Below are positions 46,927 through 49,538 of a stretch of DNA of 64,000 nucleotides, piece after piece. This DNA comes from an uncultured bacterium (GTDB lineage: Bacteria; Planctomycetota; UBA1135; GCA-002686595): contig CALSNU010000005.1 in assembly GCA_943787795.1 (NCBI GenBank), positions 1-64,000 on the forward strand, given 5' to 3'. Both the position numbers and the translations under genes were made by a program. The notes beneath the pieces are model-generated. The model saw only the letters and a list, made by a program, of their open reading frames with translations, was not told the origin of the DNA and ran no database searches. Every line of letters begins with the position of its first letter. The first letter of the stretch is position 1.

Positions 46927-47325
46927 ATGTCCGAGCGCACCGCCATCAAGACCGACAAGGCCCCCGGGGCCATCGGGCCCTACAACCAGGCCATCGTGGC
47001 CGGAGGCTTCGTGCACTGCTCCGGGCAGGTGGCCTTCATCCCCGAGACCATGGAGATCGTCGAGGGCGGCGTCGCCGAGCAGACCGAGCAGGTCATGGCC
47101 AACCTGGGCGCCGTCCTGGAGGCCGCCGGCTCCAGCTTCGCCCAGGCGGTCAAGTGCACCATCTACCTCAAGGACATGGGCGACTTCGCCACGGTCAATG
47201 AGATCTACGGGCGGGCCTTCGACTGCGCCGAGCCGCCCGCGCGGGTCACCATCGAGGCGGCGCGCCTCCCCAAGGACGTCCTGGTGGAGATCGACTGCCT
47301 CGCCCTCGCCGGGCCGGGCAGTTGA
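46927..47325 (+). CDS. ridA: RidA family enamine deaminase
   Basis: Motifs APGAIGPYNQA, SGQ, PPAR and LVEID. Confidence 0.93.
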   Translation: MSERTAIKTDKAPGAIGPYNQAIVAGGFVHCSGQVAFIPETMEIVEGGVAEQTEQVMANLGAVLEAAGSSFAQAVKCTIYLKDMGDFATVNEIYGRAFDCAEPPARVTIEAARLPKDVLVEIDCLALAGPGS

Positions 47326-47367
47326 GCTGACCCCGGAGGGCGCCGGGACGCTATTCTCTCCGCCCTC

Positions 47368-48459
47368 ATGAGCGTCTCCTGTGGAATCGTAGGCTTGCCC
47401 AATGTCGGCAAGAGCACCCTGTTCAATGCCCTGACGGCGGCCGGCGCGCAGGAGGGGAACTTCCCCTTCTGCACCATCGACCCCAACGTCGCGGTGGCGG
47501 CCGTCCCCGACGCGAGCCTGGAGACCATCCATCGGTTCATCCAGACCGACAAGGTCATCCCCGCGTCGGTGAAGATCGTCGACATCGCGGGCCTGATCGC
47601 CGGCGCGTCGAAGGGGGAGGGGCTCGGGAACAAGTTCCTTTCGAACATCCGCGAGACCGACGCGATCATGCACGTGGTGCGCTGCTTCGGCGGCTCGAAG
47701 GTCGTGCGCGAGGAGCCGGTCGACCCCCTCAAGGACATCGAGGTGATCGAGCTCGAGCTGGCGCTCGCCGACCTCGACACCGTGGACCGCGCCATCGAGC
47801 GCGTCTCCAAGAAGGCGCGCTCGGGGGACAAGGACTCGCTGGAGCAGAAGGAGCTCTTCGAGCGGGCCAAGGCCATGCTCGAGAACGGCGACCTGCTGCG
47901 CGCCCACGACTGGACCGACCGCGAGCGCCTGCTGCTCAAGCCCATGTGCCTCATGTCCACCAAGCGCATGCTCTACGTGGCGAACGTGACCGACGAGGAC
48001 CTGGACGGCTCGTCGGAGTACGCGCAGGCGGTGGCGGCCCGCGCGGCGGCCACCGGCTCCGAGTGGATCCCCATCTGCGGCGACATCGAGTCGGAGCTGC
48101 GGAACATGGAGGACGAGGAGCGGGACCTGTTCATGGCCGACCTTGGCATCGAGGCCCTCGGCCTCGATCGGCTGATCCAGGCGACCTACAAGCTGCTCGG
48201 CCTGCAGACCTACTACACCGCCGGCGAGAAGGAGATCCGCGCCTGGACCACCGCCACCGGCTCGAAGGCGCCCCAGGCCGCCGGGGTCATCCACACGGAC
48301 TTCGAGAAGGCCTTCATCCGGGCCGAGGTCTACGCGGTGGAGGACCTCGTCGAGCACGAATCAGAGACGGCCATCCGCGCCGCGGGCAAGCTCCGCACGG
48401 AAGGCCGCGACTACGTCATGCGGGAAGGGGACGTGTGCCACTTCCTGATCGGGAAGTGA
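47368..48459 (+). CDS. ychF: Redox-regulated ATPase YchF
   Basis: Motifs GLPNVGKST, FPFCTIDPN, DIAGL, GLGNKFL and APQAAGVIHTDFE. Confidence 0.97.
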   Translation: MSVSCGIVGLPNVGKSTLFNALTAAGAQEGNFPFCTIDPNVAVAAVPDASLETIHRFIQTDKVIPASVKIVDIAGLIAGASKGEGLGNKFLSNIRETDAIMHVVRCFGGSKVVREEPVDPLKDIEVIELELALADLDTVDRAIERVSKKARSGDKDSLEQKELFERAKAMLENGDLLRAHDWTDRERLLLKPMCLMSTKRMLYVANVTDEDLDGSSEYAQAVAARAAATGSEWIPICGDIESELRNMEDEERDLFMADLGIEALGLDRLIQATYKLLGLQTYYTAGEKEIRAWTTATGSKAPQAAGVIHTDFEKAFIRAEVYAVEDLVEHESETAIRAAGKLRTEGRDYVMREGDVCHFLIGK

Positions 48460-48665: not shown

Positions 48666-49538
48666 TCAACGGCGGACCACCTCGAACGGGGGCTTGGGGT
48701 AGACGGGTTCGAGCGTGCTGTTCTTCGTGGGGGACTCCAACGGAGTCGAGGCGCCGCCGCCTCAGCCGTACTCCATGGAGCCCGTCTCAAGGACGGTCTT
48801 GTCCCCACCGAGGAGCCGGTACTCCATGGGAATACGAGCGCCGGAGCGATAGATCGTCAGGCCCGCGCCGCTCGCGCCGCCGGCGCCCGTGATCTTGATC
48901 GCACCTCGCTTCCCCGTGACCTGCGAGGCGAGGTGGATGCGCGGATCGACGTCGAGCCGCGTGACCTTTCCCTCCACGATCTCGATCTTCTGGAGGGTCG
49001 CAGCCGTCGCCGAGATGTGCCAGTGGACACGCTTCTCGACCCGTTCGATCCGGTACGTCCGCAGCCGATAGGTGCCGGCGGGGAGGACACGGGGGTCCCT
49101 CCTCGCGCGGCCCTTGCCGCTCCAGGAGAGACGGTAGCTCTTGCCCTCCGCGTCGGTGAGGAAGAGGTCGCCGATGGGGATGTTGGCGGTCAGCGTGCCC
49201 TCACCCTTCCGCCGGCGCCTCTTGCTCGACAGCACCTCTGGCAGCTCAAGCGGGCGCGCGCTCAGGAACTCGATCAGGGCCGCACGGACCCGTTCGGGGG
49301 CGCCGCTTCAGGCGGTGTCCTTGACCTGATTCAGCCACGCGCGATCCCGCGGAAGCTCCGGGTCCGGCGGCAGGTGGCAGGCCATGCAGGAGCGCTGGAA
49401 GAGCTCCCCTGCCTGGGCGATCTCGGCGGCCTTGGGGCCGTCATCCTGCCTGACCGGCGAAGGCGCGAGTCGGGCGGCGGTGAGCGGGGCCGTCAGGGCC
49501 ATCAGGGCCGTCAAGGCGAGGAGGTTGAGGTGTTGCAT
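48666..49538 (-). CDS. Putative secreted monoheme cytochrome c selenoprotein with two Sec (U77, U259), 290 aa
   Basis: Signal peptide and CMACH. In-frame TGA 49308-49310 is followed by SGAPERVRAALIEFL; in-frame TGA 48762-48764 lies in MEYG-U-GGG. A hairpin follows each TGA. Final TGA at 48666-48668. Confidence 0.72.
48733..48747 (-). promoter_or_regulatory. SECIS-like hairpin 2
   Basis: GACUCC-[GUU]-GGAGUC perfect stem, with loop G 21 nt after the UGA. Confidence 0.65.
49271..49296 (-). promoter_or_regulatory. SECIS-like hairpin 1
   Basis: CGAAC-GGGUC-[CGUGC]-GGCCC-UGAUCG starts 12 nt after the UGA and has GU in the loop. Confidence 0.6.

Follow-up and report, generated by a model that had tools for sequence, protein, structure and literature searches.

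The window, a 64,000-nucleotide stretch of DNA from an uncultured planctomycete, carries on its minus strand at positions 48666-49538 a gene that was split by open reading frame calling. Translated in one frame, this region reads as 76 codons, a TGA, 181 codons, a second TGA, 31 codons, and a terminal TGA. This equals 290 codons plus a stop when the internal TGAs at codons 77 (site 1; 49308-49310, minus) and 259 (site 2; 48762-48764, minus) are read through, and 52 full-length loci align over the whole length. The initial annotation had described such a hidden 290-residue frame with two in-frame UGA codons, with which our re-translation agrees, and the open reading frame track lists exactly the 76- and 157-residue pieces that it named. 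No second copy was detected in the gene's own genome, and no sigma-70 promoter or terminator match was found at the gene. It stands alone beside ychF; the convergent neighbors at 46927-48459 (plus strand) are a Rid-family hydrolase and ychF, and nothing ties either to the selenoprotein. The ychF gene itself terminates at a TGA immediately past its final Pfam domain, so this triplet serves as an ordinary stop codon in the genome.

Both internal TGAs were unchanged in contigs from two DNA runs, each of a different study and neither study marked as a possible source of the sequence; the sole listed difference was one sense change at 49397. Since these separate studies carry both triplets, sequencing error is ruled out, and the prospect that other sequence data would show sense codons in place of the TGAs was not borne out. 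In RNA runs X17 and X18, contigs match parts of the gene and bridge neither UGA. Among the nine closest homologs, the natural stop lies 30-34 codons past site 2 and is TAG or TAA in seven and TGA in two.

The predicted protein begins with a probable signal peptide (approximately residues 1-25; 49464-49538, minus), with a hydropathy peak of 2.26 over 11 residues, and the N-termini of all 13 aligned homologs are likewise hydrophobic. Based on this hydropathy, the protein is probably exported. An AlphaFold2 model of residues 31-290, built from 129 alignment rows without heme and with Cys in place of Sec, reached a pLDDT of 93.7 and a pTM of 0.90 and consists of a three-helix heme domain, a CnaB/transthyretin-like sandwich, and an Ig-like sandwich. 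The first sandwich (residues ~110-200; 48939-49211, minus) best matched 4ecn_A (Z 7.1, rmsd 3.4, 83 aligned) and the second (residues ~201-290; 48669-48938, minus) matched 3vh8_G (Z 5.3, rmsd 2.8, 59 aligned), while a Foldseek search with the whole model returned low-TM Ig-like matches only. The residues after Sec259 had initially been described as a tail. In the model, however, the turn that carries Sec259 (G-U-G-G) connects two strands, and the 31 residues past Sec259 are predicted to form the last strands of the second sandwich and so complete it.

The small heme domain (residues 37-99; 49242-49430, minus) is class I-like according to its model helices and fold matches. Folded alone, it reached a pLDDT of 86.7, and its best fold matches were class I c domains at middling Z scores of 4.8 or less (up to 5.3 within the whole model), which should be read as ranges only; the comparison with cd1 nitrite reductase gave Z 4.8, rmsd 3.8, and 64 aligned residues. 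Its CMACH heme-attachment motif (residues 51-55, with C51, C54, and H55; 49374-49388, minus) is conserved as CxxCH in all 52 loci. Other class I traits are the position of CxxCH after the N-terminal helix, the crossing C-terminal helix, the export signal, and a maturation system in the genome, where the cytochrome c assembly protein PF01578 scored over its cut-off. Covalent attachment of heme is very likely. Pfam searches with the three protein pieces returned sub-threshold cytochrome matches only. A relation of this domain to a diheme cytochrome c (2fw5, E 0.084) was considered and dropped, as later alignments and fold comparisons did not support it.

The distal side of the heme is unusual for this class. 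No Met or His distal ligand of the class I type lies between H55 and L93, and none is conserved in the family; in 29 of the 52 rows, our protein included, the stretch past H55 up to the domain end has neither Met nor His. The only His, Met, Cys, Lys, or Tyr columns kept in all 52 loci are C51, C54, H55, site 1, and site 2. Because site 1 is the only conserved ligand-type residue of the heme domain, a His/Sec-ligated heme c is likely, and Sec77, 22 residues past the heme-binding His, is probably the distal ligand. The helix with the invariant Arg85 aligns, at weak scores, with the last helix of mitochondrial cytochrome c, and site 1 precedes Arg85 by 8 residues in 32 rows and by 11-13 in the other 20. 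In class I cytochromes, the distal Met is Met80 and a later Arg is Arg91. We take the spacing of site 1 to Arg85 to mark the place of this distal Met.

Selenocysteine machinery and hairpins

The initial annotation presupposed selenocysteine machinery, and the genome holds it. Hits over the curated cut-offs were obtained for selA (456.6 bits, cut-off 267.9), selB (327.9 bits, cut-off 242.25), selD (327.2 bits, cut-off 125), which has an in-frame TGA of its own, and a tRNA-Sec with anticodon TCA (69 bits, gathering threshold 47). The selA and Sec-type selD genes lie side by side on the same contig (G000:C5:184589-187201), ~135 kb from our gene. Across the phylum, selA was found in 45 of the 47 genomes with a family match at E <1e-30, vs. 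288 of the 401 sampled genomes overall, and the two family-carrying genomes without it are 84% and 90% complete. As kin are not independent, we regard this co-occurrence as agreement rather than as a statistical test. The tRNA-Sec gene was present in all five carrier genomes tested, and given the frequency of selA among the 401 genomes, the planctomycete selenoproteome looks under-surveyed.

A GU-loop hairpin had been proposed 3′ of each UGA, and we found one at both sites. Hairpin 1 (49277-49291, minus; +17 to +31) has a 5-bp stem and a CGTGC loop beginning 22 nt past its TGA, and hairpin 2 (48733-48747, minus; +15 to +29) has a 6-bp stem and a GTT loop beginning 21 nt past; the 60-nt folds at the two UGAs reach −20.6 and −19.8 kcal/mol. 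In loop and spacing, both fit the bacterial SECIS model as given in the available text of a recent review (loop of 3-9 nt, G in the first two loop positions, 16-37 nt from the UGA; PMC13188914, section 5). To count such hairpins, we used a rule of a stem of at least 5 bp and a loop of 3-5 nt that starts at +20 to +23 with GG or GT in its first positions. Because we set this rule with the hairpins already in view, it is descriptive and not predictive. It captured 30 of the 35 site-1 TGAs, none of the 17 site-1 Cys codons, and all 52 site-2 TGAs, against a background of 3024 of the 107842 TGA triplets in the genome (2.8%). Both internal TGAs of our gene satisfy it, while the true stop at 48666-48668 (minus) does not.

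The two hairpins differ in how far they can be separated from the protein sequence. Hairpin 1 overlaps conserved codons, with the codon of Arg85 forming its loop, and an insertion at this place in the Cys forms means that their missing hairpin is partly confounded. However, in the three Sec forms that share the insertion (L040, L046, and L072), another hairpin lies roughly as far from the TGA. Across differing amino-acid sequences, hairpin 2 persists by way of compensatory changes and register shifts; for example, pair 18-26 is TA in 27 loci and CG in 13, and pair 19-25 is TA in 20, CG in 11, and GC in 5.

Homologs and heme-less relatives

Our survey was made within Planctomycetota, and the 52 loci, our own included, span both sites and come from a subset of the matching genomes; the named records among them are Planctomycetota metagenome-assembled genomes. 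Left out of the counts were two degraded 3′ fragments (L015 and L018), a duplicate (L023), and heme-less loci (L053-L062). Site 1 always lies 22 residues past the CxxCH His and is TGA in 35 loci and a Cys codon (TGC or TGT) in 17. By contrast, site 2 is TGA in all 52 and never Cys. The expected conservation of TGA or TGC/TGT at both positions, with homology on either side, was therefore confirmed, and both TGAs are conserved at protein identities of 22-70%. A further five loci from metagenomes carry TGA at both sites, and two of these are 99% similar to our own. With matches at E <1e-30 in 47 of the 401 sampled genomes, the family is widespread in the phylum, occurring in about one in eight. 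Based on these sequence comparisons, read-through of both UGAs is close to certain, and the product of this seemingly chopped gene is almost certainly a single exported heme protein containing two selenocysteines. The initial reading of an exported heme c protein with two Sec residues in an unrecognized architecture thus stands, with Sec incorporation and redox activity as the parts that we infer.

A protein library yielded 736 representatives at E up to 0.001. At least 121 of the best 150 end in xYG, the residues directly before site 2, and these endings are the mark of a mis-called stop. All 37 CxxCH-bearing proteins among the best 150 of the 736 have Cys at His+22, and nine of the 37 are full-length and lack both Cys and Sec at site 2. 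A quick, unrooted tree, which gives no direction of Sec/Cys change, requires four changes, three of them forced by well-supported branches, to account for the site-2 loss in these nine proteins.

Several variants of the gene were also observed. In L015 and L018, from two genomes of one genus, the gene is reduced to a degraded 3′ fragment that keeps the site-2 TGA and lies in a shared sequence context. P0030 is a 642-residue database protein in which a Cys-type member is fused behind a long unrelated N-terminal region. In three Cys/Sec homologs (L016, L017, and L019), the 3′ end reads RRRC-TGA-x-stop, and a hairpin lies ~21-23 nt past that TGA. Judging from sequence, these ends are a probable third Sec arm or redox site. 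The resulting Cys-Sec-X tail presumably resembles the Cys-Sec tail of animal thioredoxin reductase.

The beta module also occurs apart from heme. Sixteen frames without CxxCH share it, most of them of 390-500 residues and most with a signal-like N-terminus; examples from the set L053-L062 are L056:86-1432 (plus), L053:1180-2514 (plus), and L060:7256-8644 (plus). Site 2 is TGA in 14 of the 16, 12 of which also have a Cys four positions farther along, and Cys in the other 2. No NCBIfam match was found in the nine tested and no Pfam match in seven, and in G246, G165, and G262 such frames lie within a few kilobases of selA on the same contig. These heme-less proteins are probably a second uncatalogued selenoprotein family.

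Gene neighborhood and host

For the Sec/Sec core, our gene included, no shared gene neighbor was found in 57 widened loci. In 8 of the 10 loci examined (nine Cys/Sec and one Sec/Sec), the gene immediately upstream encodes a secreted cytochrome that has four CxxCH motifs. This tetraheme cytochrome gene (L051 and L063-L069) is conserved and has weak Pfam and NCBIfam matches only, and its product is a likely electron partner. Among the 57 widened loci, an ArsR-type regulator is near the gene in 8, a CusA/CzcA efflux pump in 5, and ACR3 in 4, and at least one of the three occurs in 12 (L064-L066, L068-L070, L072, L097, L092, L094, L101, and L104), counts that carry no background control. In L097, a cusB-cusA pair runs directly into the family gene. 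The DNA of our locus occurs mostly in marine water-column metagenomes, with at least half its words in 17 of the 24 listed runs.

Comparison with known systems

The closest analogy we found is MccSep, also known as ExtKL (GSU2937-2936, NF040886), a polysulfide reductase of Geobacter. According to the available text of its description, heme 2 has His and Cys239 as its ligands, a C-terminal Ig-like domain extends Sec325 toward this site, and most activity is lost in the C239H, U325A, and U325C variants (10.1101/2025.11.18.688581). As far as this text allows comparison, MccSep and, by prediction, our family are exported c-type cytochrome selenoproteins with the heme part N-terminal and an Ig-like sandwich C-terminal, and in both a Sec follows a Gly on a loop of that sandwich. 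The chalcogen distal ligand, demonstrated for Cys239 in MccSep, is a candidate Sec or Cys in the family. However, MccSep has five hemes and one Sec, whereas the family has one heme motif and two Sec. The ligand Cys of MccSep is strictly conserved, while site 1 is Sec or Cys, and MccSep has Cys-type homologs at its Sec site, which the family lacks at site 2 in 52 loci.

Sequence comparison set the two apart. A profile comparison (hhalign) with a MccSep homolog gave a probability of 1% over 12 columns; because it aligned only at CxxCH, our gene is not a member of the MccSep family. In addition, NF040886 matched neither our protein, which has one CxxCH vs. five, nor anything in its own genome. 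MccSep chains are present in the PDB sequences, and MccSep is absent among the listed fold matches, which neither shows nor excludes a likeness of fold. By analogy, then, the gene may work like MccSep on an unrelated scaffold.

Similar chemistry is known elsewhere. His/Cys-ligated heme c occurs in TsdA and SoxA, where the thiolate ligand is reported to be able to leave the iron and carry substrate (PMC9562282, available text). The family would share with them a class I-type heme c with a chalcogen distal ligand, and SoxA (1h31_A) was one of the middling-score fold matches (Z 4.1, rmsd 3.2, 57 aligned). Unlike TsdA and SoxA as described there, it has one heme, a much shorter domain, Sec for Cys in 35 of 52 loci, two beta-sandwiches, and a second Sec, and none of the 129 alignment members matched the Pfam or NCBIfam families of TsdA and SoxA at E up to 0.01. 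A native Sec-ligated cytochrome P450, family M of Entotheonella, has been described in a preprint (PMC11703216, available text). The likeness is a natural Sec, encoded by UGA and SECIS, as an axial heme ligand, which in our family is putative. In that protein, which has a P450 fold, Sec is the lower axial ligand, whereas the family would have covalent heme c with His opposite, export, and a second Sec. Among the literature that we searched, no Sec iron ligand in a c-type cytochrome was found, the cases being engineered P450s and this one native family.

Selenoproteins containing or tied to CxxCH motifs have also been catalogued, namely the GSU2204 family (NF041027), UshA-like proteins (NF041198 and NF049981), and an octaheme protein (TIGR04315) (PMC13188914, Table 1). 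As listed there, these are an outer-membrane barrel, UshA-like, or eight-heme, with one Sec each, unlike the family, and no alignment member matched any of the four models (threshold E up to 0.01). Our protein matched none of the NCBIfam models (June 2026), and the 129 members gave weak matches to three NCBIfam cytochrome families and five Pfam families, none a selenoprotein family. Judged by names, models, and motifs, no entry in the available 119-family table of the same review has such an architecture. The available text of PMC1914089 concerns MccSep genes only. No description of the family was found in the literature searched, and members could be listed in MccSep datasets or in supplements of prediction papers. 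Set apart from the catalogued families by names, models, and motifs, this is a new selenoprotein family that joins known chemistries on a new scaffold.

Discussion

We propose that the gene encodes a two-Sec, one-heme redox enzyme that works in a MccSep-like way, an overall explanation to which we give a probability of roughly one half. Read-through of the two UGAs via SelB and SECIS would yield a 290-residue precursor, which would be exported and receive one covalent heme c. Sec77, replaced by Cys in many homologs, would coordinate the iron axially, on the side across from His55. On the glycine-rich turn of the last beta-sandwich, Sec259 would act as a solvent-facing nucleophile and attack the chalcogen-chalcogen or chalcogen/metalloid-oxygen bond of a small substrate such as polysulfide, selenite, or similar. 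The adduct would then be handed to, or bridged with, the heme-bound Sec77 and cleaved by electrons from a periplasmic partner cytochrome entering via the heme. Polysulfide, selenite, or a similar compound is a tentative choice of substrate class made by analogy, and it is more doubtful than the rest of this scheme.

The ligand role is consistent with site 1 only ever being Sec or Cys, even in the nine full-length homologs without site 2. Whether the two Sec sites work together is evenly balanced. In favor, those nine homologs have Cys and in no case Sec at site 1, and the invariable Sec of site 2 across the 52 loci echoes the near-inactive U325C variant of MccSep. However, the same nine keep the heme domain without site 2, and because a Sec-bearing beta module exists without a heme motif in 16 frames, site 2 can work without heme. 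Moreover, the Sec/Sec core has no shared gene neighbor, and the host is not an obvious sulfur respirer. A complex prediction combining the heme domain, heme, and last sandwich of homolog P0017 scored 0.02, which is no evidence either way, and the top covariation pairs in a shallow set of 77 rows stem from gaps in truncated rows.

Three rival readings were weighed. The protein may bind or detoxify a metal or metalloid, with the Sec residues as soft ligands for periplasmic As(III), Cu/Ag, or Hg and the heme for redox change or sensing. The ArsR, ACR3, or CusA/CzcA neighbors in 12 of 57 loci, above all the cusB-cusA pair beside the gene in L097, point this way, as do the many new selenoproteins tied to metal resistance in the available part of a review (PMC13188914). 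However, the other 45 loci, ours included, lack such neighbors, the loci are not independent, the counts have no background rate, and the ArsR and ACR3 links fall mostly in the Cys/Sec clade, so we regard this function as rather unlikely. Also unlikely is a low-potential His/Sec electron carrier whose sandwiches serve as a docking stalk and whose second Sec acts separately, exchanging with a partner thiol. Such a division of labor would suit the heme-less modules, with their Cys four residues on in 12 of 14 TGA frames, the resemblance of the sandwiches to adhesin and pilin domains, and the several losses of site 2. Yet this downstream Cys is replaced in the heme-bearing family, so Sec259 needs another partner there, and a covariation hint, weak and confounded by ancestry in the shallow 77-row set, connects the helix before site 1 with the site-2 flanks. 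Improbable in our view is a resting Sec77-Sec259 diselenide (a selenenylsulfide in Cys/Sec forms), with the sixth site of the heme open or filled by, e.g., Met255. Both sites are kept together in all 52 genome loci, and Met255 is present in 30 of them. However, Met255 is not invariant, and because nine proteins keep the site-1 Cys without Cys or Sec at site 2, site 1 has its own job. A transient bridge is also part of our preferred explanation, so only the resting state differs.

It is very improbable that the locus is no selenoprotein at all but a pseudogene, a sequencing error, separate small genes, or a case of TGA read as Trp or Gly. Databases do hold the pieces as separate proteins, and Sec is known here from genes alone. 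However, the TGAs are conserved and swap with Cys, the hairpins track the TGAs, independent contigs agree, ychF stops on TGA, and the joined chain folds as one confident model.

At somewhat below even odds, the family holds the first natural His/Sec c-type heme, which together with an Ig-delivered second Sec would form a heme-Se...Se center independent of MccSep, with a full series of natural variants; the beta module would then mark out another selenoprotein family, without heme and often encoded beside selA. If true, the natural series spans Sec/Sec, Cys/Sec, Cys/Sec with a C-terminal Cys-Sec arm, and Cys only. That the ligand site occurs naturally with Sec and with Cys makes selenium vs. 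sulfur on heme iron directly testable in a protein that is small (~265 residues), soluble, and one-heme, and the beta module exposes the second uncatalogued Sec family. Because databases hold the family only in pieces, a redox protein of uncultured planctomycetes, marine ones included, is currently invisible.
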